From: Schmidtea nova
Taxonomy: Eukaryota
Assembly (NCBI GenBank): GCA_044892505.1
Contig: CM097882.1
Location: 66,092,001-66,156,000, forward strand
Direction of reading: 5' to 3'
DNA length: 64,000 nt
Shown: in pieces, positions 30,601-54,600 of the stretch
Layout of the letters: each line of letters starts with the position of its first letter
Numbering within the stretch: the stretch's first letter is position 1
Notes under the pieces: generated by a model
Database searches by the model: none
What the model was told of the DNA's origin: nothing
The model's input: the letters and a program-made list of their open reading frames with translations, nothing else
Program-made: the position numbers and the translations under genes

Positions 30601-31508
30601 TCACACTGCAAACCCCCAACTTGGTTCCCTCTCTTATGCATCCTAGGTGAGGACGCCATCGATTATCTAGAAATATCAAAATCTGAATTCATTAAAATGT
30701 TGATTAAAGCCCAAACATTTCATAAAGAAAGTCACTTTGTATCAATTGACCCTCCTGAAGATGACCTGGATAAAATGATGTGTGAATATTTACACATATA
30801 AAAAATCTCTATCTCCCAATCAATCCTATCTTCCTGAATCCAATCTCCTGCTCTTAGATTCACACCTGCTCAACATTTTCAATCTCCCAATCAATTGTTG
30901 ATCCTACTCACACAATTCCACAACATGTTCACCGAAACAAACTACTACCTCCTGCTCTAAGATTCGCACCTGCTCAATATTCTCAATCTCTCAATCAATA
31001 TTCACACCGATCCTCAATATTCACACCTGCTCAACATTTTCAATCTCCCAATCAATTGTTGATCCTACTCACACAATTCCACAACATGTTCACCGAAACA
31101 AACTACTACCTCCTGCTCTAAGATTCGCACCTGCTCAATATTCTCAATCTCTCAATCAATATTCACACCGATCCTCAATATTCACACCTGCTCAATATTC
31201 TCAATTTCCCAATCAATAGTCAATCCTACCCACACCATTCAACAACATGTTCTCCGAAAAATACTACTACCTCCTGCTCTAAGATTCACACCTGCTCAAT
31301 ATTCTCAATCTCTCAATCAATACTCTCCTCCTGATCCAACAATCCAGTGTCCCTAAACCAGACATTGGCTAGAAGTTTATGAAAATGCTAAAATAAGCTG
31401 GAACTAATGTCTCTGCCCTCAGGGGTGGGACTCGTTAGCCTGTCTCCTCGGAGCAGAAGTTTTTTTTTTAAATAAAATTTGTAGGCCCACTTCTCAGGGT
31501 GGGTCGCC

Positions 31509-31559: not shown

Positions 31560-31563
<4 letters not shown>

Positions 31564-33183
31564 AGTTAGTGCGGGACAAAGATGCGCAACGAACTTTCCA
31601 TCGGTCGACACCATCCATTCCTTTGTTATAATTTATTTATCTCGGGATATTGAAATCAACCTTTTGCTTCTGAGCATTACACCACCTTTTCACTTTTCCC
31701 ACAGGATCTACATGATCAAAATTGGATTCAATAGTAATAACATTGTTATCCTTCCAATGTACAATTATAATTTCATTTTTTGTGTCAAATCGGTAATCAT
31801 ACTCAGCTCTAGGCTGTTTCTTCATTTTCTTCACATCTCTGAGTGGACATTTCTTTGTTCTATTTTCTCGTATTGTTCTAGTTGCTCTCTAGCCCGAATG
31901 TCGCAAATCATATAACAACTGATGGTTTGTAAAAAAGTTATTGAAGTACATGATATGTTCTTTTGGGACAATAGGTAACTTTTCCAGAAGAGATTTTACT
32001 ACTCTCGCACGGAGAGGATCAACAGAAAACTCTTTGGACTTACCGCAATAAACATCAAACGCGTAGCAGTTAGCCATCTGAACTTGTTGCAGCCCGATTT
32101 CGATTACCAAATCGTGTGGGTTTTCCCATAATAAATTGTTTGGCTGGATGATGGCCAAAGTATTTTATCAGGGACTCATCCACAGACATGAAAAACCTTC
32201 TTTTGACAAGAGATTCTCTGAAGAAGAATACACAACGGTCTGACTTTGAACATTTTATCATTCAAACTTTAAGCTTGAGTATTATCAAGAAAATGTAGGA
32301 TTCTTTTAATTTCTTGAAATCTGTTGCGTGGCATACAATTCGATACTAATGGAATGCCAAAATCTTCATCCAAACTCCAATAAGCATGTTCAGTAGGCAA
32401 GTTATGATAACCTATTAAGATTAATATTTCCAAAGATTTCTTCAAATATGCTTGATTAATTTCAAAATTATGTCTTTTATTTTGATTTGCGTACAAAATA
32501 CTGTTTTCAACAATCAGGTTCATTACACTTTCATCAAAAGATTTTCGAACAAGATAACAGGGTTGTAGTCTTTCATTGATTTTAAAAGACTTTTTTGTCT
32601 ATTCTGATAACATCGGTAATGTCATGGCTTGTACTGTATGAAGGCAAAGTTTTCATCCATACAGGTTCCTCACAATCATATTTTCTAGCTCGTTTCGCAG
32701 GTCTTACGTAATTAGAAAGAGGTATATCATCCTCGCCGTTTCGGCCTGAATACTCAAGATCGAGATAACGAGATATTACCTGGATAGTACATGGCGCATC
32801 TCTTCAAAGAGTTGAAGAGGTAACATCATCATCATTTCCTTCTTCTTCATCACTCAAAACAGCAAGATCTGGTGGAACGAAGAGAACATCGTACTCCTCA
32901 TTTTTATTATTATTATTATCATCAGCCATTATTGATTCGAGAGCTTCTTCTAATCCTAAATAGTTATTTTGACTTGTAAAGATGTAACGGAATGCCATTG
33001 TAAAAACTTTGGGAATGCTACAAAATATAAATAATTTTAGTACAGATCTGCCCATTGTACTCACTTGAGTACAGTGCAACAAAATGCAGCCTACTGCATT
33101 GTAATTTAAACAGATTGTAAAAATAATAATACCACATGTTTTACTATAGTCTAATTGTATATTGCATTAAAGAAATAGTCAAA
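31560..33183 (+). repeat. 1624-bp direct repeat, copy B (piggyBac pseudogene copy 2, minus strand)
   Basis: Matches 25991-27614. Confidence 0.95.
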
Positions 33184-35032: not shown

Positions 35033-36092
35033 TGTTGAGGTTCCAAATATTTGCTATTTGCAATCTCAACTTGTTATTGGGGTGATTCTTATATAAATAT
35101 CAAAAGCAAAGTTTGTTTTTCAAAAGTTTATTAATACAATAAAATTACTTTTTATATCGTTTACAATTTTCTACGAATAACTCAAATTCTTTATTACACA
35201 AATTTAAAAAGAAAAAGTCGTATCAAATCAATTCTTGCAATTGAACCTATTGGGTGACTGTTATGTAGTGCGTGCTATATTTAATTGTGGATCCAATGTT
35301 TCTGATCCGGGTTTTAATAAGTTATTCAAGATTGCCTTGAAAACTCAATTTGCGCTAATTTTAAATCTTGATTTTACACTAGATTTTAAAGCTAGGATTT
35401 TTTTGGGCGTTTTTACTGATTTTTTCTTTAGTTTATATAGTAAAATTTGGTATGGATAAATAATTTAATTTCCGGTCTGATATTAAAATATTATTAAATT
35501 TAGTTTTCAATTTATTCTATACTCTGCGATTAAAATAATTATATTTTAATTTCCTGTCTTGTCGTGATATTAAAATTTTCAATTTATTTATTCTGTGATA
35601 TAATTATATTTTAATTTCCTGCCTTGTCACGATATCAAAATTTCCAAATTATTTCGTATTCTGTGATATTAAAATATTATCCAGATTTAATTATTTTTAA
35701 ATAACTGAATTAAATTATTTTATTTATTGATCTGTTTGTTTTATATGTATATACAACTCATAAAATAATAAAATCAATAAAATCAAGATACACCTAAAAT
35801 AATAAAAGGAATAAAATCAAGATACACCTATTTTATATGTACATGCAAATCATAAACTACACATCAAGATATATTAAAAGAAAACAAATGTTTGTTGAGA
35901 AATGTCACAATAATAAAATGTCACAATCATATTAATTTTCTTGATGGGAGTTGCAATCTTTGTTGTGTGGCTTGGATTGGGATTCTGTGTATTGGGATTC
36001 CGCGTAAATGTTGATCCTATAGCTGTTAGGCCCTGTCCTATAATATTTATTTAGGACAAATGCTTGGATGGGCTTCCCTCGATCATCCAACA
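35033..36092 (-). repeat. 3' LTR (1060 bp)
   Basis: Matches 47581-48640 at a constant offset of 12548. No difference found by eye. Confidence 0.96.
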
Positions 36093-37902
36093 TTCCTCCC
36101 AGGGCCGTCAAGGTAATGTCCTCATTACCTTTTTCACTCAGGACCATTTCAATTTCTTTATCCTTTAATTTCATTATTGTTCTCTTGAATCCTTTCTTGA
36201 TTGCCAGATTTAGGGTATCATCTTCCTCAATTCGTCTTCCGAAATGGGTACATAGTTGTTTTTCCGTTATCTCTTTTTGGTCGGCACTTATAATGAAGCT
36301 AGGTTCTTCCTCCTCTTCTATTTCCATTTCAATGTCAGGTTCTGGTCCTAATTCGTCTTCTGCTTTTATTTTACTCTCCCTTTCTTTTGTGACGTCTTCT
36401 TCGTCGTCTTCCTCAACTGAAAAATACTCTTCGTCCGAATCTAAATCGCATATGTCTTCTCTTTCTTTGTATTTTTGTATTAGTTGCGGTTCGTTTTTGA
36501 TCATTATTTGATTTTCTGGTGGTCCTTCTTCTTTTGTAATCATTAGGTCGTCATCACCATCTTCATGTATTGTTTCTTCCATATCTGAATTTTCATCCAT
36601 TATTATACTTTCTTCTTCGCTTTCCTTCAACTCTTCCATACATGATTTTCTGTTTTGCATCTGGTATAGGTCTCCTTTCATTTCGATATCGTCTGTTATT
36701 GGTGTATCACTTTGTGACGATGTTGAAGCTGCTGAATTCCATTTTATTATAGGTTCCCATTTGTCTTCTACTATTCCATATATTACCTTTAATATTGTTG
36801 TTGTCTTTCTGGCAGAAAATGGCTCACTTTCTACTAATGCTTCATTCAGTCTCTTATCTTTGTACCATCTCTTATGGTATTTAATTACTTGGTAAGCTAA
36901 GTTAGATAGCTTAATTTTGAGTGGATCTACGTTTTTCACGAATGAGCACATAAATTTATCTCCGGCCATTTCTCTCATTCCTGCAATGTTGTCTAGACCA
37001 AATGTTAGCATTTTTAATTTATCTATCATATCAAATCCTATGATTATTTTTCCCCACAACAGCTCTCTAATATCCCATAGCGCCTGGTACTCATCTTCAT
37101 TTCCGACGATACTTTCTTTATTGACCATTGTTTTTTCTGTGCAGAAGTTTTTTATCTTCGTTCTTGGGGTTATCTTTTTGTTGTATATAATTTCACCGTT
37201 GTATTTTCTTATACATACTTCTACTGGTCGCTTGTTGTCATTTTTATCAATTGCAAATTTTGCATCCATGAACATAATTAGTTGGTGTCTCTCTTCTGTG
37301 GATAATTCATTGTGTGTGAAAGAGATTTTTTCATTTATCCAGCTTTGATCGTACCAAGGTTTTGAAGGGATTGGCGGCATTGATTGGAATGGATTTGATA
37401 TCAGAGGGATATAGAGTATCTCGATTCCTATGACACATGGTAAGTTGTTCATTTGGATTATGAGGTGATTAAAATCGTCTGGCATACTTCTGTTGTTTGT
37501 AATTGTTTTGATGATGATTGAACAATTACTTGTTGTGATTATTGGTACTTTATGTTGGCAAATTGATACCTCGGTTTTTGTCATGTGGAATAGGATTCTA
37601 TGTGGTACCTTTTTTCCTTCGATTACCGCTTTGTCGACATTAAGATGTTTTTCAAATGTGCCGATTAGGTCTTTTAATTTTGTTCGTCGAGCTTCATTAA
37701 ATTTGATAATGTGTAGTTCTCTTTCTTCAATTTCCACTTTCATATCATTTGGGATGCATACTTGGTTTGGGAAGCTTCTGATTGTGATTGGATTTCCATC
37801 GGTACATATTTTGTTTTGTAGGGTTTTGTAAAAGTTTAGAGGGTGTTTGTTGATCATAGCCACATAGTTCATAGATCGAGAATAATTTGGCTCTGATTGC
37901 AT
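35932..37902 (-). CDS. ORF2: accessory protein with degenerate DEDDh (REX4/ISG20-like) exonuclease fold, acidic tract and conserved C-terminal domain; overlaps the 3' LTR
   Basis: The frame is open from 38316, but MQSEPN (ATG at 37902) is the more plausible start. FMDAKF...EVCIRKYNGEIIYNKKITP...GKIIIGFDMIDKLKML...KLSNLAYQV...PFSARKT parallels LDCEM...YDxYVKP...GRILVGH...DL..L...SLK.LA...GHSSVEDA. Confidence 0.75.
   Translation of the reverse strand: MQSEPNYSRSMNYVAMINKHPLNFYKTLQNKICTDGNPITIRSFPNQVCIPNDMKVEIEERELHIIKFNEARRTKLKDLIGTFEKHLNVDKAVIEGKKVPHRILFHMTKTEVSICQHKVPIITTSNCSIIIKTITNNRSMPDDFNHLIIQMNNLPCVIGIEILYIPLISNPFQSMPPIPSKPWYDQSWINEKISFTHNELSTEERHQLIMFMDAKFAIDKNDNKRPVEVCIRKYNGEIIYNKKITPRTKIKNFCTEKTMVNKESIVGNEDEYQALWDIRELLWGKIIIGFDMIDKLKMLTFGLDNIAGMREMAGDKFMCSFVKNVDPLKIKLSNLAYQVIKYHKRWYKDKRLNEALVESEPFSARKTTTILKVIYGIVEDKWEPIIKWNSAASTSSQSDTPITDDIEMKGDLYQMQNRKSCMEELKESEEESIIMDENSDMEETIHEDGDDDLMITKEEGPPENQIMIKNEPQLIQKYKEREDICDLDSDEEYFSVEEDDEEDVTKERESKIKAEDELGPEPDIEMEIEEEEEPSFIISADQKEITEKQLCTHFGRRIEEDDTLNLAIKKGFKRTIMKLKDKEIEMVLSEKGNEDITLTALGGMLDDRGKPIQAFVLNKYYRTGPNSYRINIYAESQYTESQSKPHNKDCNSHQEN
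36093..36102 (-). promoter_or_regulatory. Polypurine tract of the 13.6-kb element
   Basis: Minus strand gggaggaa lies immediately before the 3' LTR TGTTGG, inside the ORF2 coding sequence. Confidence 0.8.
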
Positions 37903-38248: not shown

Positions 38249-41200
38249 TTATACCAATGTAGACCTCGAATATTCACCTGGTATATATTTACCCAAATGG
38301 AAATGCCCTGGTACATTTCTGACCAGTTGGCTCCGATACCGCTGCCTTTTCCATTTGTACTTTTTATAAACTTGTACGCTAGTTATTAAAGCTAAAACTG
38401 CTAATGCTATTATTGATGTTGTGATGACATAAAAAGGCCAATGTGGATTTTTATCTTTTTTACGAAATGCTTGTAGTTCCTCTAAGTTATGTATCACTAT
38501 TGGTCTTCCTTGCCTTATTTTGATAGGTTCTTGTTTTTGTTTTTTGGCATTGTATTGTTTTTGGAGTTTGGCTATTCCAGTGCTTGTTGGTGTTTCGTTT
38601 GTATGTAGTGTGGTATTTAGTCTATTATTTGATGTCGTTGTTGTGCTTTTTGTTATGTTTTGGTTTTTTATTATATCCTTGGGTAATTGTTCTGTTTTTA
38701 TCTCTTTGCATCTCCATGTTGTTGTATCTGTGTTTCTCTGTATGCAGATTTTATATATTGTATTAGGTGTTAGTTTTGTGAAATTAATATAGTTTCCTCT
38801 TTCAATTTCGTTGGTTGTTCTGTCGTCCTTTCCTTTTATCATCTTTGGGCTTTTCCCATTCGTTGTTTGCATGTATAAATCAATTACTCCTCTATTTATG
38901 ATAAATGCTCTGACTTCGTTTGTTGATATTTTTATTAATACTCTGTCAAATTCTATTGTTTCGGTTGAGCCAACAATTGTTATGATTGTTAAGAAGATAG
39001 CTGATATTATTAGTTTGTTGTGAGATCTTAGATTATACTTGTGAGGTTTATCTATCGTGACCTCGGCTTCCGCCAACTTGCATCTGTTGACATGTACTAC
39101 TATTGGATCCTCGTTTTTATGCTTTTGTAAATGTAAATTCTCATTTATTACTTTTACTACTTCATATGGACCTTTATATGGTCTTGCTAATTTTGTTGTC
39201 TTTCCCTTTCCTACTTGTGGTGACATAAGTCTAACCTTATCACCTACTTTAAAGTTGTGTGGTTTACTATTTTTGTCGTAGTCGGCTTTGTATTGTTCTT
39301 GTCTATATTTGACCTTTAGATTGGCTACTTTATACACTTCTTGCAGTTTTTCCTGCATTAGTGTGACATAATCTGGTGCATCTAAATATTGTGATACTCG
39401 AGGTTCAAATATTGTATCTATTGGTGTTGCTGGTTCTCTTAAAAACATTAAATAATACGGCGAATACCCTGTTGTTTCGTTTGGAGTGATATTATGAATG
39501 TATGTGCATTGACTTATGTATTCGTCCCAATCATTTTGATTTTTTCCTACAAAAACAGCTAGTCTGCTTAGTAATGTCCCATTAAATCTTTCTACTAGTC
39601 CATCAGTTTGAGGGTGATACGCTGTTGTGTTGATCTTTTGCATGTTAAAAATATTAGCTACTCGTTTTATTAATTCACTAGTAAAATTTGTTCCTTTATC
39701 TGTTAATAATCTTTTGGGTGTGCCTATCTTGAAAATAATTTTTTCTATAAGCAATTTAGCAACTGTTTCTGCTGTTTCGTCTTTTGTTGGAAATGCTTCT
39801 GCCCATCTAGTAAAATAATCACTAAATACTAGTATATGTTTATTCCCATTAATTGTGGTAGGTAATTTACATAGAAAATCCATTGCACATAGTTCCATTG
39901 GTGATGTCGTTGCTGGAATGGGATGTAACGGCGCTTTTGTTTTTGTACCTGTATTTTTTCTTGTTGCACATATTGTACACGCGTTACACCATCTCTTAAC
40001 ATCTTTCTTTAATTCTTCCCAGTAATATTTTTGTAATAATCTACTTGCTGTCTTTCTAGATGATAAGTGACCTCCTAATGCTCCATCGTGATATTGTAGT
40101 AGGAGTATTTGTCTTAATTTCTGAGGTACTACTATTAATTGCTTACCGTTGAAATCTTCTATTACTACTAATTTCTTTGATATTTTATATTTTGAATTGT
40201 TTTCTTTTCTGATTTCATTCCTTATTCTATTGATCTCTGGGTCTTTCATCTGTTCCTCATATATATCTATTGGCTTTTCTGCTACTAGTGCAAATATTTC
40301 AAGTGCTCCTAATTCTGGTATTCTTGATAGTGCATCTGCGTTTTTATTTATTCTACCTGGTTTATATATAATTTTTAGGTGCATGTCTTGTATTTTCATT
40401 GCCCATTTAAGTAATCTACTTGATGTATCTTTATGTTTCCATAAGCCTTCTAATGGTTTATGGTCTGTTCTTATTATCACTTCAGTTCCGTAGATGTATG
40501 GTTTGAATTGTTTTAGGGCAAATACTATTGCGTAACATTCTTTTTCTATTGTTGAATACCTCAGCTGTGCTCCTTTTAATGTTTTACTGGCATATGCTAT
40601 TACGTAATCTTTCCCTTTCTCTTCTTCTTGGCCTAATACTGCTCCTACGGCTTTCCCGCTGGCATCCTTCATTACTATAAATTGTTTTTCGAAATTTGGG
40701 TATCTTAACACTGGTGCTGTTATCAATCTTTCTTTTAGTTTGTCGAATGCTTCTTGATGTTCTTTTGTCCATTTCTTTTGTATCTTGTTAACTTTATTGT
40801 TAATTTCTTGTACTATTAACACGTCTTTGCATTCTCCTTTTGTTTTAATTCCCTTTGTTAGTTCTATTATAGGTGTTGCTATCTTTGCATAATCTTGTAT
40901 GAATTTACGATAGTATCCTGTTAAGCCTAAAAACCCTTGTACTTGTTGTACTGTTTTTGGTATTGGGAATTTCTTTACAACTTCTATTTTTTCTGGATTT
41001 GGTTTTATCCCTTCTACTGTGACTATATGCCCTAAAAATAATGCCGAAGACTCTGCCCATTTACATTTAGTTGGTTTAATTTTTATCCTTGCTTTTCTTA
41101 GTCTCTCAAGTACGTTTGTTATATCTTTTAGATGTTCCTCGAATGTCTTTGATGATATTAATATGTCATCCATGTAAACTGCGCAGTGTTGTACATTTAC

Positions 41201-44200
41201 TAATATTGTGTTCATTAGACGTTGAAATGTAGCTGGCGCATTAGTTAATCCGAAGGGTAATCGTGTGTACTCATATAAACCATCCTCAATAACAAATGCT
41301 GTTTTTTCTGCATCCCCTTCTTCCATTTGAATTTGCATATACCCCTTATTCGCATCAATGACTGAAAAATACTTAGCATCCCTAAGTTTATCATATTGCT
41401 CTTGTGCTTTTGGGAATGGATATGAATCTTTTACTGTTACATCATTTAATTTACGATAGTCAATGCACATTCTTATTTCTCCGTCTTTCTTTTTGACGGG
41501 TACAATGGGTGATGCCCACTGTGAAAAACTTTGTTTTATTACACCTGCGTCTTTTAATTCTTTAATTTGTCGCTTTATCTCCTCTCTTAGTTTGTATGGT
41601 ACGCTATATGGTCTTTGTTTTATTGGTCTTGCATTGCCCGTATCTATTACATGTTTGATTATGTCAGTATCTCCTAAATCAAATTCATGTTTTGCAAAAA
41701 CATCGCTGTATTCATCTATTAGTGTCTGTAATTGTGCTTGTTGTGTTATTGTTAGGTATTTATTATTGATTTTCACTTTGTCGTATGATTTTATACTATT
41801 TGTCTTACTAGGTTCGACCACTCTTTTGCCGTTATCATTTATCACACTTGTCTCGCTGACTTCATACGTTTTCTCTAATTCACCTTTGAATAATTTTCCC
41901 AATTTCGTACCTTTGTGTATTTTAACATTACTTTTTTCATAATTTGCTATTCTCAATGGTATTATTCCCTTTCTCGGAATTACGCATTCATTGGTTAGCA
42001 TTATATTCTGATTTTGTATAATTGCCGTTTCTGGTTCAAAAATAAAAGTGTCCTCACTTTTGACGTTAACTTTTATGGGGATTATATGATCACACTCATA
42101 TTCTAATTCGAATGCTTCTAATGCAACAACTTCCGTGAACTTGGACTTATGTTTGATAGCTTTTCTTTTAATCGTGTTATCCGTTAAGTCTATGATGCAG
42201 TTATTCAGCTTGTTGAGTATATCGATCCCTAGTATACATATGCTATTGCATTCTTGTACTACTTTAAATATGTGGTGTATTACTTGTTCTGATGTTTCAA
42301 CTACTAATTCAATATCTCCTTTTAGTGGAATGTAGTGTGCTGATAGTGTTACTACTTTATCCGTTGTTTTCATAATATTTCTCTTTTGATCATCTGTCAG
42401 TTGATCTTCTCTAATTAAGGATGTTGCTGCTCCTGTGTCTACTAATGCATTTATGATTATATTGTTTATAATTATTCTAAGTCTTGGTCTTGCTTCGTTT
42501 GCTGCATCTAATCGTTCCATTGTTTCGACTTCTAAGCTATAACAACCATATATCTTTTTAGGTTCACAATGACAATTCTTGTTTTCTCTAGGAATTTTGA
42601 TTTCTATATTTTCTTGTAGCTCTTTTAGTTGTTCTCTTTGGTTTTCATATAGTCCTTGTTGTGGTACATTTCCTTCATGTGATATATGCGCTTTAATTAT
42701 TTCCTCATCGTTTTCATCATCTACCAGTAATTGCCTTTCTTCACTCCTTTGGACTTTTATTAAACGTATTTCCTTGTCGTGTTTCGCCGTAATAAGATAT
42801 TTAGCTATAAATGGGCACAAACATGCTAATAATTTATATGAATTTCCAAATACTTGTTTTAGCTGTCTCAGTGATACTAGAGAAGAACATATCATTTTTA
42901 GTAATGCAACCGTATAATATATACCTAAGATTGTAGAAAACATGTTTCCAAGGACTGCAAAGTATCCCCATATGCTATATAGTACTTTATATGCTACTTT
43001 TTTGAAGTATTCTTTTGATAATAACACATCAAAGTTGTAATTTCCTCCGTAACTTCCTTCGATAACTCTGTTTACCATTATTGAAAGTACTCTTTCTTTT
43101 TCGTTTGGAAATAGCATGTGTTTTCTTGCACTTTCTATAGCTTCTCTCGTATATATGCCATTACTGTCCATATCGTTGATTTCTTTAAACTCTAATCTTT
43201 TTTCTAGCTCTATGAGTTCTAATTTGAGTGGTTTCATTGCCTCCTTTCTATCCGACATAGATATCCACATTTCGTCATTTATTTTGTATAATGGGTCTAA
43301 TAGGTTAGTGCATTTGTCTATTTTTCTCGGTATATATGTTTTTTCTGTTAATATTCTAGTAATTGGTTGAAGGTATACCCTTTCTCCTTTATATATTACC
43401 GGTAATTCATTAGTGCACTGATTATTTGTTGCTAACGATACACTAACAGGTTTACATTGAAATGTCTGTATCACTTCTCCTACTATCCTTGCAAATGTTC
43501 CTTCTTCTGAGAAGATTATTGGTGCCATTAAATCTGGGTTTGTTACCGCCACTGCCATTTTTGTCCTCAATATTTCTCTGTTGAGTTTGCAATCGCTCAT
43601 AATTGTTGATTGATATACTTTATCTAATTGTACTAGTTGGTTATGATAGAAAAAATCGATTTTATTGTTGAAGTATGATGCAAGTTTGACGTCGAATTTA
43701 TTTACTTTTTGTTTTGCATCTTTGACTTCTTCTTTGCTTATGTATATCCCTTCATAATTAGTTTGTATTATTTCCTTACCACATTTTACACTTTTCCTTT
43801 TACTAACAAACCTCATTGCTTCGTTTTCAGATTCTGACATATATATTGTTGGTGTATCTTTTTCTTGTACAATTGTTGTTTTCCTTTTTTGATCTCTCAC
43901 CCTTTTTGAGTCTACTTCTGTGAACTGTTTTCCTTTGATTTCCCTAAATTTTAATGATTTTAATTTTGTTAACTGACAATCATATTTATCTATTTTGTAT
44001 ATTAGCATTGATTCTCCTGTATCGCAATAAGATTCTTCTAATGTACAAAATTTGTATATCATCATTTTCTTTGAGCTGCTGTCGAATGATGCTTTGAACT
44101 TTCTCAGTTCTACCATGTAGTGTCTCCTTACTACAACATTACTCAGTTTTTCGCCCCATATTGTATATTCTCCTCCTTCACAATATCCTCCTTTTGATGT

Positions 44201-47200
44201 CCATCCCACGACATTTACATCTTGTCTCATTTTTGCCCCTATCCTTGCTTCTAATTCTATTCCTTTATGACCGCTATATTTTACTTTTTTTGTTTTAAAT
44301 GCATCTTCACACTCTATTGGTGACAATATTACTGCTTCGGGTGTCCACGTAGGTTTTAACACTGTTCTTGCCCCAACATGACATATATATGCTTCCTCCT
44401 GATACTTTATTATGCACTCTTTGGCCTCTGTATGAATAAAGTCTGATTCTTGATAAACATGGAATATTTGAGGCTCTGACATGATTAATTTAGTTGGATT
44501 TGCTTCAGGGCAATTTTCAACATCTAACAGTGAGTATTTTTGTCCCCACTTTGGATTTTGACAATCATATGCTACCATTGCATTGCCTCCCTTGATTAAA
44601 TCTAATAACAAAGTGATAATGACTATTACTATGGAGGTTATCGATTTACTCTCTGTCTTTGGTTTTACTGTTGCTTTCTTTATTAATTGTTTTATTACCT
44701 CATCTGTATCACTCTCTTTATTCGTCGTATCTTTATCATATAATACTTTCCATCCTCCTTTCTTTTTTATCCATGGTATTGCCTCTACTTTCAATCTTTT
44801 AAACATCATTGTTGCTACTTTTTCTAATTGCTCTTTTGGATTTTCCTTTATGAGCTTTTTATATCTTGCGGCCAAGTATGCCATGGCCGTTATTATTTTA
44901 TCTTTATCTATCCCTGTATTAAACATGATTTTTAACACTGTTTTTTCATTTGCTTCCTCTGTAGCTAGTTCTTTAGTATCCTTTTTAATTAACATCATCC
45001 TTTCAGTTATATTTTCAATAAGTACTGTTGGCTTTGTTTCTGGAAATAGCTTAATATTCATTGCTTTTATTACTTCTTTTATTTTGTTTACGTCATTATT
45101 ATCGTCTTGATACTCTGGTTGTTCATGTTTATGTTGATTTGCAATCTCTCTTAATCGTTCTGCTGTCTTCCTATTCTCCGATTTTTCTATTATTTCTGAT
45201 TTTCGAGGTCTTCCTCTACCTCGTTTTGATGTTTCTGCATCTTTTGTTTTTGCTTCCTCAGCTATTCTTTCTATTGTTTCTTGTAAGTTACTATACTTTT
45301 CATCTATAGGTTTAAATATAATTTCTTCATCCATTACTGATTTCTTTGTTTCGCTAGGTGATTTATCCCATAGCCTAAATAATCTATCAAAATCGTTTTC
45401 TTCATTTATACTCAACTCAACTGACGGTACTGGCGTCATTATTTCATTGATCATTTGTTTTTCTACTGTGGCTACCACAATATTATCACTTACTGGGTTT
45501 ATCCCATAATCGATTAAGTACTCGTCACTTAATAATTCTATTCCGTTAAAATATAATTTTATTACATCTTTCTCTCCTATGGTTCCTGGCCATTTGGCTC
45601 TTACCATTCGTTTTAATTTGCTCACTTTAGTGCAAGTATGCATCTTTTGTTTAATACTAAAAAAATAATTATCATTTGATTCAATCGTTACATTTAGTGT
45701 TTCATGCAATTTTTCATTTTTTCTTATATATTCTCCATAACATTTCAACATCTCTTTTATTTCTATTTCTAATTCAAATACTCTCGTTATATTTTGTCTC
45801 TTTACCATCATTGGTATTAAATTTCTAAGTCTCTCTAAATCAATCCCATTAACCTGTATTTTATTGATTACTCTTAATGTTTCATTGTCATCAAACGGTT
45901 GCTTATGCAATACCTCTTTAAATTCCTCTATTAATTCTTTTTGTCTATTTTCTTCTGTAAGAAATATTTCATCTGCTTTTCTAATTTCCTTTAACTCATC
46001 ATTATCAATATCTACTTCATTTGTAAAGGTGCTAAATTCATTTATAGACATTTCAAGTTTTCTCTCAATAAGTCTTCCATATTGAGTTTTAAATTCTTTT
46101 AGTTCCTCTCTTAATATATTTATTTCTTTATTTGCTGATTCGAGCTCAGCACTATTTACTTGTTTTATCTCAGGCTCATTTTTAAATCTTACTCTTATTG
46201 GTGAATCTGCTCGTGGTTTATTACATACCTTTGCTAGGTGGCCATACTTTTGGCAATTATAACATTTTATTTGTCCATTGAAATTCACTTTATCTCTACC
46301 ATCATTATTATAAGTATTTCTCTTCACTGGGCTATCTTGCCTATTTCTCGAATTATCTCTATATCTATTATCTCTTCTATTATATTCGAAGCGACTATCT
46401 CTATTATTTTTATTATATCCACTGTAACTGTTTCTGTTATAACCAGAACGACTATCTCTAAAATTATCTCTGTTGTCTCTATCATTATCTCTATCAAAAC
46501 GATTGTCTCTAAAACTGTCTCTATTATTGTTTCTTTGATAACTATCTTTAAAATTATTTCTATTTCTATTATCGAAATTTTTATTTCCTGGACTACTAAA
46601 CCTTCCCCTGTTTTCAGGTGATTGGCTTCTATTAGGACTAAATTTTCTTCTATTATTGACAAAATTCAAGTACAATTGTTTCATTTCTTCCCAGGGAATA
46701 CTATCATCCTTATTTCTCAACTCAGGTTTTACCTCGGGTTGTTTTTCAACTTCTACAGCATCTACCTCTGGTTTAAATCTATCTCTTTGTATTGCTTCGA
46801 TACGTTTTGCCTTTTGAACTAACTCATTTAAGTCTTCATACTCAATTGTAATTAATGCTTTGTATAAATATTTTTGGATGCCGTTCCAAAACTGATCCTC
46901 AATTAATTTACTAGTGTGATCTCCGGCACCAAATGCCTTTTTTGCTAATTCTGTTATCGTGTATATATATTCACCTACTGATTCTCTGGCTCCTTGGTAT
47001 CTACTTCTAAATTTTTGAACATTTATTTTTTGTAAGTCTCTATCTATTACTATTTCTTTTCTAAGGTTTGTAACTAACTCTTGATAATTAATGCCTTTAC
47101 ATAATAAATTATTGTATGCTTGTAATGCGTATCCTTTTAAATATAATGGAATTCGTTGTTTTAATTCATTTGTTTTCCATCCGCAAGCCTCTGCATATTG

Positions 47201-47338
47201 TGCGATTTCAGCAAAAAAGTCGTCGAACTTTTCAGGGTCTCCTTTATATGATTCTATTGGTAGTGTTTTTATAAAATTATGACTATTTCCTATGATATCG
47301 TTATTACTGTTGTTACTACTACTTGTACTATTACTCAT
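38249..47338 (-). CDS. 3029-aa Gag-accessory-Env-Pol-membrane protein polyprotein
   Basis: Gag CA at the N-terminus. CYNCQKYGHLAKVC about 46222-46264. UBL about 45460-45700. AT-hook RGRGRPRK about 45201-45227. Bcl-2-like about 44740-45170. Signal about 44580-44645. Glycoprotein MVAYDC about 44578 to TM about 42790. LVDTGA about 42430. YMDD about 41170. RNase H DAS/EKE/TDH about 40300-40760. Integrase HHCC+DDE+GPY about 39100-40090. Second signal about 38967-39015. C-terminal TM about 38366-38435. Confidence 0.95.
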   Translation of the reverse strand: MSNSTSSSNNSNNDIIGNSHNFIKTLPIESYKGDPEKFDDFFAEIAQYAEACGWKTNELKQRIPLYLKGYALQAYNNLLCKGINYQELVTNLRKEIVIDRDLQKINVQKFRSRYQGARESVGEYIYTITELAKKAFGAGDHTSKLIEDQFWNGIQKYLYKALITIEYEDLNELVQKAKRIEAIQRDRFKPEVDAVEVEKQPEVKPELRNKDDSIPWEEMKQLYLNFVNNRRKFSPNRSQSPENRGRFSSPGNKNFDNRNRNNFKDSYQRNNNRDSFRDNRFDRDNDRDNRDNFRDSRSGYNRNSYSGYNKNNRDSRFEYNRRDNRYRDNSRNRQDSPVKRNTYNNDGRDKVNFNGQIKCYNCQKYGHLAKVCNKPRADSPIRVRFKNEPEIKQVNSAELESANKEINILREELKEFKTQYGRLIERKLEMSINEFSTFTNEVDIDNDELKEIRKADEIFLTEENRQKELIEEFKEVLHKQPFDDNETLRVINKIQVNGIDLERLRNLIPMMVKRQNITRVFELEIEIKEMLKCYGEYIRKNEKLHETLNVTIESNDNYFFSIKQKMHTCTKVSKLKRMVRAKWPGTIGEKDVIKLYFNGIELLSDEYLIDYGINPVSDNIVVATVEKQMINEIMTPVPSVELSINEENDFDRLFRLWDKSPSETKKSVMDEEIIFKPIDEKYSNLQETIERIAEEAKTKDAETSKRGRGRPRKSEIIEKSENRKTAERLREIANQHKHEQPEYQDDNNDVNKIKEVIKAMNIKLFPETKPTVLIENITERMMLIKKDTKELATEEANEKTVLKIMFNTGIDKDKIITAMAYLAARYKKLIKENPKEQLEKVATMMFKRLKVEAIPWIKKKGGWKVLYDKDTTNKESDTDEVIKQLIKKATVKPKTESKSITSIVIVIITLLLDLIKGGNAMVAYDCQNPKWGQKYSLLDVENCPEANPTKLIMSEPQIFHVYQESDFIHTEAKECIIKYQEEAYICHVGARTVLKPTWTPEAVILSPIECEDAFKTKKVKYSGHKGIELEARIGAKMRQDVNVVGWTSKGGYCEGGEYTIWGEKLSNVVVRRHYMVELRKFKASFDSSSKKMMIYKFCTLEESYCDTGESMLIYKIDKYDCQLTKLKSLKFREIKGKQFTEVDSKRVRDQKRKTTIVQEKDTPTIYMSESENEAMRFVSKRKSVKCGKEIIQTNYEGIYISKEEVKDAKQKVNKFDVKLASYFNNKIDFFYHNQLVQLDKVYQSTIMSDCKLNREILRTKMAVAVTNPDLMAPIIFSEEGTFARIVGEVIQTFQCKPVSVSLATNNQCTNELPVIYKGERVYLQPITRILTEKTYIPRKIDKCTNLLDPLYKINDEMWISMSDRKEAMKPLKLELIELEKRLEFKEINDMDSNGIYTREAIESARKHMLFPNEKERVLSIMVNRVIEGSYGGNYNFDVLLSKEYFKKVAYKVLYSIWGYFAVLGNMFSTILGIYYTVALLKMICSSLVSLRQLKQVFGNSYKLLACLCPFIAKYLITAKHDKEIRLIKVQRSEERQLLVDDENDEEIIKAHISHEGNVPQQGLYENQREQLKELQENIEIKIPRENKNCHCEPKKIYGCYSLEVETMERLDAANEARPRLRIIINNIIINALVDTGAATSLIREDQLTDDQKRNIMKTTDKVVTLSAHYIPLKGDIELVVETSEQVIHHIFKVVQECNSICILGIDILNKLNNCIIDLTDNTIKRKAIKHKSKFTEVVALEAFELEYECDHIIPIKVNVKSEDTFIFEPETAIIQNQNIMLTNECVIPRKGIIPLRIANYEKSNVKIHKGTKLGKLFKGELEKTYEVSETSVINDNGKRVVEPSKTNSIKSYDKVKINNKYLTITQQAQLQTLIDEYSDVFAKHEFDLGDTDIIKHVIDTGNARPIKQRPYSVPYKLREEIKRQIKELKDAGVIKQSFSQWASPIVPVKKKDGEIRMCIDYRKLNDVTVKDSYPFPKAQEQYDKLRDAKYFSVIDANKGYMQIQMEEGDAEKTAFVIEDGLYEYTRLPFGLTNAPATFQRLMNTILVNVQHCAVYMDDILISSKTFEEHLKDITNVLERLRKARIKIKPTKCKWAESSALFLGHIVTVEGIKPNPEKIEVVKKFPIPKTVQQVQGFLGLTGYYRKFIQDYAKIATPIIELTKGIKTKGECKDVLIVQEINNKVNKIQKKWTKEHQEAFDKLKERLITAPVLRYPNFEKQFIVMKDASGKAVGAVLGQEEEKGKDYVIAYASKTLKGAQLRYSTIEKECYAIVFALKQFKPYIYGTEVIIRTDHKPLEGLWKHKDTSSRLLKWAMKIQDMHLKIIYKPGRINKNADALSRIPELGALEIFALVAEKPIDIYEEQMKDPEINRIRNEIRKENNSKYKISKKLVVIEDFNGKQLIVVPQKLRQILLLQYHDGALGGHLSSRKTASRLLQKYYWEELKKDVKRWCNACTICATRKNTGTKTKAPLHPIPATTSPMELCAMDFLCKLPTTINGNKHILVFSDYFTRWAEAFPTKDETAETVAKLLIEKIIFKIGTPKRLLTDKGTNFTSELIKRVANIFNMQKINTTAYHPQTDGLVERFNGTLLSRLAVFVGKNQNDWDEYISQCTYIHNITPNETTGYSPYYLMFLREPATPIDTIFEPRVSQYLDAPDYVTLMQEKLQEVYKVANLKVKYRQEQYKADYDKNSKPHNFKVGDKVRLMSPQVGKGKTTKLARPYKGPYEVVKVINENLHLQKHKNEDPIVVHVNRCKLAEAEVTIDKPHKYNLRSHNKLIISAIFLTIITIVGSTETIEFDRVLIKISTNEVRAFIINRGVIDLYMQTTNGKSPKMIKGKDDRTTNEIERGNYINFTKLTPNTIYKICIQRNTDTTTWRCKEIKTEQLPKDIIKNQNITKSTTTTSNNRLNTTLHTNETPTSTGIAKLQKQYNAKKQKQEPIKIRQGRPIVIHNLEELQAFRKKDKNPHWPFYVITTSIIALAVLALITSVQVYKKYKWKRQRYRSQLVRNVPGHFHLGKYIPGEYSRSTLV

Positions 47339-47560: not shown

Positions 47561-47578
47561 TCCCGGTTCGCGGCACCA
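47561..47578 (-). promoter_or_regulatory. Primer-binding site TGGTGCCGCGAACCGGGA
   Basis: 18 nt beginning TGG, 2 nt inside the 5' LTR end. It resembles tRNA-Phe/His type PBS; the tRNA was not assigned. Confidence 0.88.
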
Positions 47579-47580
47579 AA

Positions 47581-48640
47581 TGTTGAGGTTCCAAATATTT
47601 GCTATTTGCAATCTCAACTTGTTATTGGGGTGATTCTTATATAAATATCAAAAGCAAAGTTTGTTTTTCAAAAGTTTATTAATACAATAAAATTACTTTT
47701 TATATCGTTTACAATTTTCTACGAATAACTCAAATTCTTTATTACACAAATTTAAAAAGAAAAAGTCGTATCAAATCAATTCTTGCAATTGAACCTATTG
47801 GGTGACTGTTATGTAGTGCGTGCTATATTTAATTGTGGATCCAATGTTTCTGATCCGGGTTTTAATAAGTTATTCAAGATTGCCTTGAAAACTCAATTTG
47901 CGCTAATTTTAAATCTTGATTTTACACTAGATTTTAAAGCTAGGATTTTTTTGGGCGTTTTTACTGATTTTTTCTTTAGTTTATATAGTAAAATTTGGTA
48001 TGGATAAATAATTTAATTTCCGGTCTGATATTAAAATATTATTAAATTTAGTTTTCAATTTATTCTATACTCTGCGATTAAAATAATTATATTTTAATTT
48101 CCTGTCTTGTCGTGATATTAAAATTTTCAATTTATTTATTCTGTGATATAATTATATTTTAATTTCCTGCCTTGTCACGATATCAAAATTTCCAAATTAT
48201 TTCGTATTCTGTGATATTAAAATATTATCCAGATTTAATTATTTTTAAATAACTGAATTAAATTATTTTATTTATTGATCTGTTTGTTTTATATGTATAT
48301 ACAACTCATAAAATAATAAAATCAATAAAATCAAGATACACCTAAAATAATAAAAGGAATAAAATCAAGATACACCTATTTTATATGTACATGCAAATCA
48401 TAAACTACACATCAAGATATATTAAAAGAAAACAAATGTTTGTTGAGAAATGTCACAATAATAAAATGTCACAATCATATTAATTTTCTTGATGGGAGTT
48501 GCAATCTTTGTTGTGTGGCTTGGATTGGGATTCTGTGTATTGGGATTCCGCGTAAATGTTGATCCTATAGCTGTTAGGCCCTGTCCTATAATATTTATTT
48601 AGGACAAATGCTTGGATGGGCTTCCCTCGATCATCCAACA
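47581..48640 (-). repeat. 5' LTR (1060 bp)
   Basis: Followed on the minus strand by the PBS and on the plus strand by TSD GAGA. Confidence 0.96.
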
Positions 48641-51600
48641 GAGAGATGGGCAACAATTTAAGAAATCCCAAAGACAGAATGATATGTTTTCATTCAACCG
48701 TTACTTACAGGTAAAGCCCTGGAAGCCATGTGAAGACTATCGACAGAAGAATCAAAAAACTACGAGGTGATAAAAGGCACCATTATGAAAAGATTCAACA
48801 AATCCCCAGAAGAACACAGAAAAGCTTTCAGGTCCTCGCGAAAAGCTAATAACGAGATTCACGCCGAATGCCTCAACCGATTGAACGTATAGATTGAAAG
48901 ATGGTTTAAGTCAAGTTACACAAAAGAGATACAGAACATCAAAAACGTTATCATACAAGTGCAGTTTATGCGAAACATAAACAAACGGATCAGGACATGA
49001 CTTGAAGAACACGACAATTCGGACGTCCTAAAGATGGCGCTAGCGGCCGACAGATACGAAAACGCACACAAATTCGAAACTGATACTCCGAAAACCTCAC
49101 AGTGGAGACCCAGGCAATTCCCAGACCCAAACAGAGGACTAAGACAATGCTACACATGCGGAAGTAATGCACATCTAGCTAGAGAATGTCCAAAACGAAA
49201 CGCAAATTCAGTCAAACTGAAACACGTGAGTATTCCTAACAAATATATATTTAACGGGATCATTGCAGGCAAGCCGATAGAAATGTTCAGACATACGTGC
49301 GCGTCATCGGCGGTTGTTCATCCGATGTTCGTAAAACAGTCAAAATACGTAGACAAGACAGTGAACGTCATGTTGGCCGACGGGAACTCAACCAAAGCCC
49401 TAATCACCAGATTAAATATCTCAGTCGAGAATGTACGGCTCACGATAGAAGCACTGATCATGAGTAGTAAACACGGAGTATTACTAGGAAACAATCTAGA
49501 CGAGTTTTGCGAGGCTATCACCAGATCAAACAATAAAAATCATTTAGCGACGAGAATAGTAGCCGATAAAGAAGAACAAATATTAAACCCGAACCCAAAG
49601 AACATATTCGACAACGATACACTCAAAGCACCAGATTACTAGAAATACGTGGAAGGAAGTAAAGGGAAAACAGTCCCCGAAGTTGATCAATCTATCTTCG
49701 ACATAAATACGATTAACCTACACAAATCTCAAATGGATGACGAATCCCTGGATAAGTACACTAACGAAGCAAACAAATAATGCCAAAGTACCAAACTGTC
49801 GATAGAAAATGGTATACTGATGTACACAGAAAACGCAAAAAAAGCCTGTGATTCCCAAACAAAATTGAGAAAAACTACTGAAAATAGCTAACGAAATCCC
49901 ACTATCAGGACACCTGGGAAATAGGAAGACCAGATACAAGCTGAGAAAATTCTTCTTTTGGCCAAACAGCATAGAAGACGTCCAAAAATGGTGGAAGAGC
50001 TGCCCACAGTTCCAGAAATCAAGATGAATAGAGAAAGCACATAGAGCACCCTTGATAAGAACCCCCCTATTGGCGAACATTTCTTCAGAGTTGGCAAGGA
50101 TATAGTGGGCCGCTAAACCTATCAAACGATCGAAACAGATTCATTTTGACAATGATAGACCACGCAACCAGATACCCAGAGGCGATAGCGATACCAGATA
50201 TGAGGGCAGAAAAGGTCTCAAAAGCAATGTGCCATTTTTTCTGCCGAGTGGGTATACCGTCCAAAATTCTAACAGACCAAGGATCAAATTTCATGAGTGA
50301 GGTTATTAAACAGGTATACCAGCTCCTAGGAACAACGCGCATCAAAACCTCCCCATATCAACCGCAAACTAACACGATATGCGAAAGATTCAACGGAACA
50401 CTGAAGTCAATGCTCCGAAGATTGCTAGCCGATTCCAAAGGGAAGGATTGGGACACGTACTTGCCATATCTCTGCTTTGCCTACAGGTCGAGTCCGCACT
50501 AGAATATCGAATTCAGCCCCTTCGAGCTACTGTACGGCCACCAGGTTCAAGGGTCCTTATCGATGGTATATAGATAAATGCTGAATATCCCGGAAAGAGA
50601 AACATCAATCAATACATTTGTACATGTATACTCGACCGATAAAATGAACTAAGTAATGGAGATCAAACAACAAAAAGACGACGCCTCTAAAGAAAAATTA
50701 AAGAAATAGTACGGCAAGAACTCAAGAACCACAACCTTCGACATAGGAAGTGAGGAAGTTCTCGTCCTCTTACCGACATCTTCGACAAAAATACTATCGG
50801 GATGGCACGGACCATGCAGAATCGTCAACAAAATAAGTGATGTCATCTATATAGTAGACACCGGCCGAACTAGAAAACGACTGTGGACCTTTCATGTAAA
50901 CCTTTTACGAAAGTGGCATTGCCAAGAAGAAGCAATCATATAAGCGCTGATCGCCGACGAAGGCAGGACCGAAACCGAGACTGTTACAATAAACCCGGAA
51001 GCGAACACCAAGACCATACAAATCGTTAAACAACTTGTCAACGAATACAGCACCGTGTTTTCTTCTCTACCAAGCCTGACTAACGAAGCAGAATTCAATA
51101 TAAATCTGACGAACGAAACGCCAATCAATCAAAGCCCATACCAACTTCCGCATTCACTTAGAGATAATATGAACGAAGAAATTCAAAGCCTACTCAAGCT
51201 AAAAATCATTGAAAAGTCAAATAGCCCATGAGCAAGTCCAGCTCTTTTCGTAAAGAAAAATGATAATCTGAGGTTAGATCAGGACTATAGGAAGATAAAC
51301 TCGGTTACAATATTTGATAGTTATCCGATGCCAGAAATCGAAAAGGTAATCGATTGAGTAGGAAACGCGAAGATCATGAGCACGATAGACCTGACTAAAG
51401 GATGTTATCAGATACCGATAAAAGATAAAGACAGACCCAAAAAGTGCGTTAACAACACTATTCGGATTATTCCAATTCACAAGGATGAGTTTCGGATTCA
51501 AAAATGCTCCAGCTTGCTACAAAAAAATGATGGATAAACTATTCCAAAACTTATCAGGAACGTCAGTGTTCCTCGATGATCTCATTATCTACTCCTCAAC

Positions 51601-54600
51601 AGTCTAGAAACATATCCGAATACTACAGACAGTTTTAGAGACCCTACAAAGAGCTAATCTAACCCTAAATCCAAAGAAATGCAAACTAATGATGTTGAAA
51701 ACCAAGTTCCTAGGGAAATTAGTCGTAAACGGAGAGGTGTCACCGATTTCGGAAAAATTGATGCAATCAAAAGAGCATCCAGGCCAAAGACAAAGAAAAA
51801 ATTACGACGATTCCTCGGTATGATCAACTACTACCGAAGCCATATCAAAGACCTATAAAAAACTGATTATCTGAACGAGAAACTAAAGAATGGAGCCTCA
51901 AACCGAATAAAATGAAACAAACAAAGCAAAAAAGTCTTTAGCGACCTAAGAGATCACTAACAGAAGCGCCAGTACTCATATCGGCAGACGACGAGAAAAC
52001 ATTTTACGTGCAAACCAACGAGTCCAGCCGAGCCATATGAGCCGTTTTATCCCAAATTATAGAGACAAAGGAACACCCGATCACGTTTCGATCCAAGAAA
52101 CTTTCGGAACCCCAGATCCGATGGTCAACAATCGAGAAAGAGCTGTACGCGATAGTATACGCACTGGAGCAATTCCGTTATTACCTATATGGTCGCAAAT
52201 TCGTAACCCAAATGGATCATAAGCCCCTAAAATGGCTCGCAGGTCTAAAAATCAGGAACAGTAAAATCTCAAGATGGAGCCTCCTACTCCAAGACTACGA
52301 ATTCGAAATCCAGTACAAGAAGGGTACCGAGAACACAAACTCCGATTACCTCAATCGACTTGAAGAAACCCAAGCCGTGGATAGGGACGGATGTTACAGT
52401 TTAGAATTAATTACTAATTAATTCTAAATCGATTTCATCATCTTTAAACATTTTTGTTTAAATAAGCATTTTTTGATAAAAATGCACATTTGAAAAACGT
52501 GTCTTATTTATTGTCGTAACACAGATGAGCCAGTTTTTCTTCTTAGGATTATTGGAAAATCCCATCCTCGAGGGCCTGAAGATCCTACAAATGTTCTCAC
52601 GTAATAATACATTGTGTTTCGATTAAAAATGTGATGGGCGCATGAAATAAAATTTTGTTGTTTAACTTTGGCTGCAGTCATAGAATTAAATGTATAATGT
52701 AAACCGGATTAAGACCGTTTTCCGGGCCAATTTCTTTTATTTTACATGAACAATTCAGCGACTAAAGATTTATCATAAAATATATTCTTATTTATTTCAG
52801 CATGACCGAAGGTCCGACAGTGCAAACAGAAATCGACAAGACTCGAAGGATCTGGAAGAGCCTGGAACAGGATATCAAGCACTGAAATGCTCAAGCGACC
52901 AGACTTGATACCCAGAACCAATACCTTAAGTAAACGTGGTTTATGTCACCACAAATGGAGGAACAGATTGGACGCACCAAACGCGCTCAGCGGGCCGTTT
53001 CTGAGACGAAACTTGAACTCGAGGCTACAAAAATATAGCTGTGCAAGTGTCTTCTGTCAGTGATCAAATCCGTCGTCGAGACCGAATTGAAGGTGTGCAA
53101 CCGCCCAATTACGTTACAACATTGGTCCGATCAACAGAAAACGTCTTGTTCAGTGGGAACTGACATGAGAGATATGGCCGAGTTCGCACCCAATACCTAC
53201 GACAAGCCAAAGGAGATACTAGTGAAGCCGACTGGGGCCGACTAAACGCATTGGTTCAAAAGGGCGACGCCAAAAGAAGTTACTCTACCAGTGGTTCAAG
53301 GCTCAAATCGACCGATTGGATGATCTCTCTGCATTGGACTTGCTGGCGGAGGTCCTCCCACTAGGCACTGACTCAGCGGATTTTATGTATTTGTCTCCCA
53401 GTGTTGACTTGTATTTAGCGTTAAGGACATAAAACAAAAAATTTAAGATTTTAATTAATGAAATAACTAAGAAATCTTTCTTTTGTGGGTGTTTACCAGG
53501 AATTAATTAAATACCATATTGAAAAGGTGTTAACATGAATATATAAACAGGCGAAAGCGTAAGACCTTCTAACGGCCACCAGAACCCATTGAAGAAAGTG
53601 GGGGAGGAGTAGTCGTTGCAAATGGGCTCACATGTCCTCAATCCATGCATCTTCGTACACAGTTCCAACATGGTCACCGGGGGAATTACCATGGGTGTGC
53701 GAGCGGGATAGATACACATTTATGTTGTGGTCTGGGTTAAATTTGTTAGGTATTTATTGTTAAGTCGGTTTTTATCTGACTCCTCAGTGTTCTTATTAAG
53801 ATCAATGAACAAGACCCAACACAGTAACCTTTATTAATAATCAATCTAATACACAATTACCTTTACAAATTATTTTATGTTTAACTGCTTTTCAGATTAT
53901 TCACTAACGCACAAGGATACGTCTCCCAACGGCAGATGTCCCTTTCTGGTACCCGTGTTAACAAATAAATTTTAATTTGATGATCACTGACCTCGTTTCT
54001 CTTTTTACTTTTCACAATATTTCCTTTCATCAAGATGTTTTTCTTTTCTTCGACCGTAACTGGCAATTCTGCTGTTTTTGTCTCTCTTTTTATATAAAAT
54101 TTTTGAGAACTGTTCTATTTTTTTTCGGTAAATTGCCCGTTAAGACCATTAAACCGTCAATTTTTAATACCGAAATGCCAGTCTCCACTCTGAGGCAATT
54201 AAAATGCTAATTCAGATTTATTGTCATTTGCCTGGAACATTAATTTTCAAAGCAATTTACTTGCTACATCGGGTTTTTCTCATCGCTAGGGTTCTCCATT
54301 GGCTCGAGTTTTACGTTAGCTCGGGCTTTCCATTAGCCAATTAATTCTTAATTAATATTTTAATATTTTAATTATTTTTTTCTGGGGACCCCTCATCGTT
54401 TTGATTTTCATATATTTGAATTCGTCTAATCAATCGGCGTACACCAATACCAACTTTCCCTTTGTGTTGATTTTCCATTTTATTAATTTTTTAATTAATG
54501 TTTTTGTATTTTAATTAATTTGTAGATTTTTGTTTTTTTATTAATTTCTATTTAATTTTTTTAAATTTTCACTTTCTTTTTGAGTCACTTCTGCCAAACC

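Follow-up and report, generated by a model that had tools for sequence, protein, structure and literature searches.

The 64,000-nucleotide stretch of Schmidtea nova DNA analysed here (the window; assembly GCA_044892505.1, contig CM097882.1, positions 66,092,001 to 66,156,000) carries on its minus strand a young, multi-copy, intact, Burro-like Ty3/gypsy retrotransposon with an envelope gene, env, in frame between gag and pol. We think it likely that the single gag-env-pol polyprotein of this element threads the membrane of the endoplasmic reticulum (ER) four times and is cut both by signal peptidase and by its own protease. This gene order has been described before, so the surprise is limited, and the element represents a new and compact case of it; what the present models suggest as an addition is a conserved layout of four crossings, including a second membrane protein past the integrase. 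The topology was read from Kyte-Doolittle (KD) hydropathy, the (-3,-1) rule for small residues at signal-peptidase sites, charge patterns and structure models.

The element spans 13.6 kb. Its two long terminal repeats (LTRs), each of 1,060 bp with TG...CA termini, show zero mismatches between them (5' LTR, 47581..48640; 3' LTR, 35033..36092; these and all features of the element are on the minus strand) and the 4-bp target duplication TCTC is present at both flanks. A primer-binding-site-like 18-mer starting with TGG lies 2 nt past the 5' LTR (47561..47578), for which a tRNA pattern search returned no matching primer tRNA. The paired LTRs, their termini and the target-site duplication, along with the order protease (PR), reverse transcriptase (RT), RNase H (RH), integrase (IN) and intact catalytic motifs, are those of Ty3/gypsy elements. 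The closest Pol relatives bear Ty3/gypsy-type domains, and a quick RT tree, having no named references or outgroups, placed the element within a 20-row group of env-in-chain proteins and fragments (SH-like approximate likelihood ratio test, SH-aLRT, 86).

The first open reading frame (ORF1) runs for 3,059 codons from stop to stop (47428-38249; P0001, the numbering of which is used throughout) and encodes a single polyprotein of 3,029 amino acids from its first Met at codon 31 (38249..47338, the Met at 47338). Its modules follow the order Gag, ubiquitin-like, Bcl-2-like, Env, PR, RT, RH, IN. An earlier note on this DNA had stated that no stop or frameshift separates gag from pol, and this holds: the gag-to-pol stretch has zero stops and zero frame changes, and the frame is unbroken from first Met to stop in 14 of 39 other copies. 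Three frames scanned for slippery sites gave 15, 18 and 17 heptamers; no heptamer was outstanding or clearly shared, and they were treated as noise.

The other copies were sampled in two ways, 39 loci with a gag query and 18 further loci with an RT query, and the sampling favours close copies. In genome G000 the env region has 40 or more matches of at least 99% identity, scoring having covered the best 40 of 546 candidates. Frames of at least 2,900 codons occur at 16 of the 39 gag-sampled loci. Indels common to many copies are confined to codons 6-9, upstream of the first Met; others are shared at codon 156 (three copies) and codon 828 (two copies), while the remaining breaks are scattered, with none shared at the gag/env or env/pol junction. 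Two more families in the same genome, at 35-38% identity, have frames of 3,393 and 3,401 codons around env, and env lies within the same chain in 22 of 125 Pol-bearing proteins examined. Two full copies with unbroken frames (L022 and L023; G000:C2:234309440-234332027) stand 12.6 kb apart, a spacing of about one element minus one LTR, as in a tandem pair with a common LTR.

The position of env in frame between gag and pol, and an Env of gB (glycoprotein B) type, or mononegavirus-like, align the element with Burro and with the GAG-ENV-POL errantiviruses. Planarian Burro/GYPSM1, called the first case of in-frame env between gag and pol, is described as having one ORF with Gag, CCHC, Ubi/SUMO-like, BCL2, mononegavirus-like env, PR, RT, RH and IN (Arkhipova and Yushenova 2019, PMC6431247), an order matched here, where the ubiquitin-like and Bcl-2-like segments are putative. 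GAG-ENV-POL errantiviruses with an HSV/gB-type Env (HSV, herpes simplex virus) are reported from nematodes, bryozoans and flatworms (Chary and Hayashi 2026, PMC13524379), and resemble our element in gene order, gB-type Env and multiple intact copies. In the narrow sense the element is not a Burro, which is given as exceeding 30 kb and encoding 4,873 amino acids (PMC6431247): at 13.6 kb and 3,029 amino acids it is smaller, has one zinc knuckle and yields no Pfam match to the MATH, BIR or ankyrin cargo. Among relatives, ankyrin repeats (P0183) and an Ig-like Pfam match (P0200) are found in the same polyprotein, reminiscent of Burro cargo.

The first crossing is a predicted internal signal peptide (residues 929-950; 44579..44644). 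Its hydrophobic stretch, residues 930-948, leads into the sequence GGNA/MVAYDC (residues 947-956; 44590-44561), the slash marking the signal-peptidase cut predicted after Ala950. This site was assessed with an Env profile search, which yielded 2,606 homologs; the best 150 were used, and their rows are related rather than independent draws. The Cys of the AxDC pattern is aligned in 104 of the 107 homologs of stand-alone size, 98 of which have no more than 40 residues ahead of it, i.e. an N-terminal signal peptide. At the register Cys-5, the (-3,-1) rule is obeyed in 72 of the 104 stand-alone and 15 of the 16 embedded Envs, as compared with at most 32 and 7, respectively, at other registers, figures that bear out the signal-peptidase-type site proposed in the earlier note. 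In 12 of 15 polyproteins the segment has a more basic flank on its N-side than on its C-side. Because stand-alone homologs carry an N-terminal signal in the same register, the GGNA/MV site is, judging from the alignment, the Env's own signal-peptide site, retained inside the polyprotein. An origin of the segment as a Bcl-2 family tail anchor was set aside, since stand-alone Envs share both the segment and its register; following cleavage it may serve as a Bcl-2-type tail anchor.

The Env is recognised by Pfam as a PF24664 fusion glycoprotein (residues 934-1579, E 7.5e-88). Its ectodomain and membrane-proximal region (residues 951-1489; 42962..44578) appear to form a class III gB-like fusogen, and the ectodomain Cys residues are conserved in at least 90% of 118 alignment rows. 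The AlphaFold model made with these 118 rows (pLDDT 89.3, pTM 0.70) matches herpesvirus gB with a best E of 7e-14 and a TM-score of about 0.4, and a sequence search of the PDB with the Env profile gave 0 matches. Herpesvirus gB is a single-pass type I protein with amphipathic cytosolic helices. Three hydrophobic windows follow the ectodomain here, at residues 1485-1548, and the predicted transmembrane helix, the second crossing, occupies residues 1490-1510 (42899..42961). Across 15 polyproteins this anchor has a mean KD of 2.01, the best window among the 50 residues that follow averaging 1.35, and up to the end of the integrase no later window exceeds 1.69 other than the RT active-site strand of one protein. 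Position 1511 is a Lys in 94% of the embedded rows and in 80% of the stand-alone ones, and the stretch past the anchor is interrupted by Gly, Lys and Pro or Asp. In the model, a single unbroken helix spans residues 1472-1527, a hairpin is absent and two short helices lie beyond; residues 1511-1547 (42788..42898) are predicted to be amphipathic helices at the cytosolic face, with mean KD values of 0.58 and 1.23. Since the model is gB-like with a single continuous anchor helix, Env is probably lumenal with one anchor and PR-RT-RH-IN cytosolic, as the earlier note had it.

Purifying selection acts on Env and its anchor. The dN/dS ratio (nonsynonymous to synonymous substitution rates), a crude estimate from variants common to at least three copies, comes to 0.03 in the Env ectodomain (18 nonsynonymous and 124 synonymous variants), 0.01 in the Env membrane region and 0.02 in RT-RH.

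Pol follows with an aspartic protease (residues 1645-1745, DTGA at 1664; 42194..42496; PF00077, E 7.3e-7) and, as assigned by Pfam, RT (YMDD at 2085), RNase H and an integrase with a C-terminal SH3-like part (together residues 1930-2790; 39059..41641). Past the integrase lies a second predicted internal signal-peptide-like segment, the third crossing (residues 2804-2821; 38966..39019), with a basic N-side and small residues at -3 and -1, which is found across the clade. It precedes a second predicted lumenal module, an FN3-like domain (residues 2822-2915) with a Thr-rich stalk and 3 N-glycosylation sequons, at residues 2882, 2924 and 2938 (38441..38965), and the fourth crossing, a C-terminal anchor followed by a basic tail (residues 2997-3020; 38369..38440). 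The earlier note, which dealt with positions 42190-44650, had placed the two Env segments and missed this later pair, so that its topology covers only two of the four hydrophobic segments. At least two hydrophobic segments after the integrase, arranged as signal, sequon-bearing ectodomain and anchor, are present in 12 of 15 polyproteins; 17 were given to this analysis, and P0182 and P0193, in which the anchor pattern failed, were dropped, both showing two such segments in a separate survey of Pol-bearing proteins. Since the second signal requires a cytosolic integrase, an odd number of passes after Env is favoured. As this signal and an anchored ectodomain follow the integrase, Pol would be tethered at both ends, between the Env tail and the second signal.

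The ectodomain beyond the integrase is only 19-21% identical between families and gives no informative match in Pfam. Its single-sequence model has seven strands (pLDDT 61) and finds FN3 domains in nearly all of its best PDB rows, none better than E 0.007; a structure atlas points to FNDC5/FNDC9 at 0.88-0.89, to be taken as a lead only. In a literature search on LTR retrotransposons, none of the matches listed named fibronectin type III. In P0003, P0011, P0013, P0181, P0185 and P0195 two or three aspartic-protease motifs occur per chain, and the extra motifs of some relatives are positioned past the integrase and ahead of the second signal segment.

From these features we infer a scheme of cleavage, packaging and product ratios. 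The polyprotein would cross the ER membrane at the four conserved hydrophobic segments, host signal peptidase cutting at the two internal signal peptides and the element's protease cutting in the cytosol. Three products would result: Gag with the ubiquitin-like (UBL) and Bcl-2-like segments, tail-anchored through the first signal; a gB-like fusogen of type I, with a cytosolic tail that runs into PR-RT-RH-IN and ends in the second signal, the Pol precursor thus forming a cytosolic loop held at both ends; and, as a product of its own, an FN3-like type I membrane protein. The protease would release capsid and nucleocapsid (CA-NC), detaching them from spacer and anchor, and would cut the enzymes off the Env tail. 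With Gag and Pol parted by signal peptidase, Pol could not enter the capsid as Gag-Pol and would reach it via its membrane tether instead. The ratio in particles would be skewed to Gag through partial packaging or decay of Pol, or through a shorter Gag RNA. More speculatively, and at a probability well below even, Env clustering may set Pol packaging and protease activation, with the fast-evolving FN3-type protein partnering the fusogen as attachment factor or decoy in a two-glycoprotein entry.

Several observations weigh against this scheme. The Env ectodomain of this copy has zero N-glycosylation sequons, a result reached by 5.7% of shuffles, where embedded relatives have 1-4 (median 2) and stand-alone homologs a median of 3; of the lumenal glycoprotein foreseen in the earlier note, the lumenal placement and single anchor are upheld by KD, model and gB fold, while N-glycosylation finds no site here. 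AlphaFold does not model the membrane. In this copy the anchor contains Asn1495 and its hydrophobicity is no more than moderate (KD 1.65), charge does not orient it, both sides being net positive in 15 of 15 polyproteins, and the membrane might be dipped into by the weaker hydrophobic stretch at residues 1530-1547. Lying about 900 and 2,800 residues into the chain, the internal signals would have to be caught late. After the integrase, P0184 has no hydrophobic segment and P0200 one, and the first of L053 falls just under the threshold; selection there is weak or unmeasurable, with 4 nonsynonymous to 4 synonymous variants in FN3 and 5 to 1 in the stalk. Finally, the relatives P0006, P0007, P0013 and P0017 stop after env or PR and, since they are known here as proteins only, split ORFs may exist in the clade.

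Some of these points would fit a different membrane path, in which the Env C-terminal region crosses twice, leaving the protease lumenal in the full-length product, or in which the internal signals go unused. The three hydrophobic windows at residues 1485-1548 and the missing sequons could be so explained, but the continuous helix of the model, the gB fold, the Lys, Asp and Pro breaks after residue 1510, the parity demanded by the second signal and the conserved ectodomain Cys residues speak against such a path, which we regard as very improbable. We also consider it quite unlikely that splicing removes env, as the earlier note suggested, and yields a soluble Gag-Pol, the full polyprotein serving mainly for Env. 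Such a splice would restore the usual packaging of Pol, and 6 donor-like motifs are present before the first signal. All of these are in phase 0, however, and the two acceptor-like motifs past the Env anchor are both in phase 1, so that their joining would shift the frame; between codon 1542 and PR a motif scan, crude and not discriminating, as was that for AATAAA, found no acceptor-like site. An env-skipping RNA would retain the LTR ends and primer site and might re-enter the genome as a copy. Env-less gag-pol copies nevertheless number 0 among 57 loci (39 gag-sampled and 18 RT-sampled, a sample that favours close copies), where three pairs resemble the two parts of copies split by an insertion and some five loci give no information, the element sequence ending within the 10 kb. 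First-look candidate counts are likewise similar for gag, env and RT (508, 546 and 568). Four contig sets of unrecorded type from one study contain no well-supported env-skipping joint among the rows listed and are uninformative on expression or splicing.

The remaining alternatives concern stoichiometry. The earlier note envisaged Gag, Env and Pol in equal amounts, all staying membrane-anchored and co-assembling 1:1:1 at the budding site. One ORF with no outstanding recoding signal and an anchor on each of the Gag, Env and Pol parts would suit such an arrangement, and for the hepatitis C virus (HCV) core an anchorage through the signal peptide of E1, lasting up to a second cleavage, is described (PMC5402940). 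Equimolar synthesis follows, though, only for unspliced RNA, and a 1:1:1 ratio in particles is unlikely. We compared volumes, taking protein to occupy 1.21 nm3 per kDa, at which 540 copies of RT-RH-IN (103 kDa) amount to about 6.7 × 10^4 nm3. The Ty3 capsid, with 540 CA, is reported to have an interior of about 5 × 10^4 nm3 (PMC6525542), so that equimolar Pol would overfill a capsid of Ty3 size, although the element's own may be larger. In the studied retroviruses and Ty3/gypsy elements Pol is said to enter the capsid as a minority Gag-Pol fusion (PMC6525542). The membrane anchor of Gag is 550 residues past the zinc knuckle (234-874 in relatives), C-terminal to an NC that in Ty3 faces the capsid interior (PMC6525542). 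Candidate protease sites, short hydrophobic motifs of a kind seen at retrotransposon protease sites and read by eye in many relatives, lie 20-35 residues past the knuckle, directly after NC, and about 30 before the protease DTG. Given the distance of the anchor and these candidate sites after NC, the Gag tether is likely transient, CA-NC presumably being set free by the protease, and the co-assembly of lastingly anchored Gag, Env and Pol seems to us unlikely.

A lesser but serious possibility, compatible with the four-crossing scheme and departing from it on the ratio alone, is that the topology is right but the full polyprotein minor, most Gag coming from a shortened RNA, the result of splicing or of early polyadenylation, so that the ratio is set at the RNA level. 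Precedent comes from single-ORF elements: copia, BARE1 and EVD are reported to reach Gag excess through such Gag-only RNAs, and Ty5 through Pol decay (Oberlin et al., PMC5580714). The 15 AATAAA sites between the knuckle region and early env, the donor-like motifs before the first signal and the excessive load of equimolar Pol for a Ty3-size capsid agree with this reading, but splice and AATAAA motifs are expected in a strand of 45% A, and their positions are unmatched in L050 and L053, barring one acceptor-like site explained by the protein sequence.

Set beside known systems, the four-crossing scheme works like that of the Flaviviridae, where the HCV capsid protein is described as ending in the envelope signal peptide, being cut by signal peptidase and staying anchored (PMC5402940); here too, on sequence evidence, a predicted internal signal with a (-3,-1) site stands ahead of an ectodomain. 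Unlike the Flaviviridae, the element has LTRs, depends on reverse transcription and encodes a class III fusogen, an aspartic protease and an integrase. Lack of gag-pol recoding is shared with copia, BARE1, EVD and Ty5, the chains of which, as presented in that source, contain neither envelope nor membrane segments (PMC5580714). The Env resembles herpesvirus gB and the Monjiviricetes PF24664 glycoproteins in fold, signal register and membrane-region pattern, and is unlike them in being embedded in a polyprotein, in a tail that continues into Pol and in having no sequon in this copy. If the predicted cuts occur, the element would be a retrotransposon using flavivirus-style host processing and would need another way to package its enzymes and set their amount.

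The published accounts of this gene order bear on these points in part. The available part of the Burro account says nothing on topology, signal peptides or a post-integrase membrane protein, and Burro is likened to our element by description only (PMC6431247). Chary and Hayashi report ectodomains flanked by a signal peptide and a transmembrane segment, or by two transmembrane segments; their main text does not contain 'polyprotein', 'frameshift', 'splic' or 'single ORF', and, leaving aside its figures and sequence files, presents no processing model or second membrane protein (PMC13524379). Neither of these was found reported in our literature search, outside of which fell subscription papers and Sacco et al. 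2022 on nematode gag-env-pol. The entry route of the gB-like fusogen is called unknown in the text of PMC13524379, and the conserved post-integrase membrane protein is a candidate partner for this fusogen; were the more speculative reading given above true, with Pol delivered as a membrane loop and a two-glycoprotein entry, this clade of invertebrate retroelements would assemble unlike any studied reverse-transcribing virus.

The Gag side of ORF1 begins with a CA-like region, an Arg/Asn-rich linker and a CCHC knuckle (residues 31-403; 46220..47338). The knuckle matches zf-CCHC below the Pfam cut-off (E 0.0013), and the CA-like assignment is a putative one, based on position and similarity to the N-termini of relatives. 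A probable ubiquitin-like segment follows (residues 575-660; 45449..45706), at a position equivalent to that in Burro, with no Pfam match in this protein and a ubiquitin match of E 0.018 in the relative P0003. The Bcl-2-like segment (residues about 790-895; 44744..45061) has two PF00452 matches, E 2.8e-5 (residues 828-893) and E 1.7e-6, both under the curated cut-off. In the spacer between these two segments is an AT-hook-like motif (residues 735-744; 45197-45226, minus strand; Pfam E 0.097).

Past the ORF1 stop, ORF2 encodes 656 amino acids from its first Met (35932..37902) and extends 161 nt into the 3' LTR. Pfam gives no informative match for it, and a structure-atlas lead at 0.88 makes an exonuclease fold of RNase T type possible, although the customary acidic motif is missing. 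Summed contig depth over ORF2 is about a quarter of that over ORF1, for which reason ORF2 may be confined to one subfamily.

Elsewhere in the window, a broken Gypsy-like element lies beside the 5' LTR (49001-52421, plus strand), its short frames holding pieces that resemble a zinc knuckle, an integrase and an RNase H. Because a 130-nt repeat links positions 34431 and 52392, the studied element may be nested within it. At 20309-23598 (plus strand), a pair of repeats of 99% identity, 2,990 bp apart, surrounds a 641-codon frame with gag- and protease-like parts and no visible RT, likely a short non-autonomous LTR element. A further repeat pair of 99% identity, 5,569 bp apart (25986-31854), encloses a low-complexity frame of 1,058 codons that contains tandem repeats of 18 nt; a poly(A) run comes after it. 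Two frames resembling DNA-transposon transposases, at 6216-7115 and 12130-13977 (both minus strand), are, as we take them to be by eye, Merlin-like and hAT-like, respectively.

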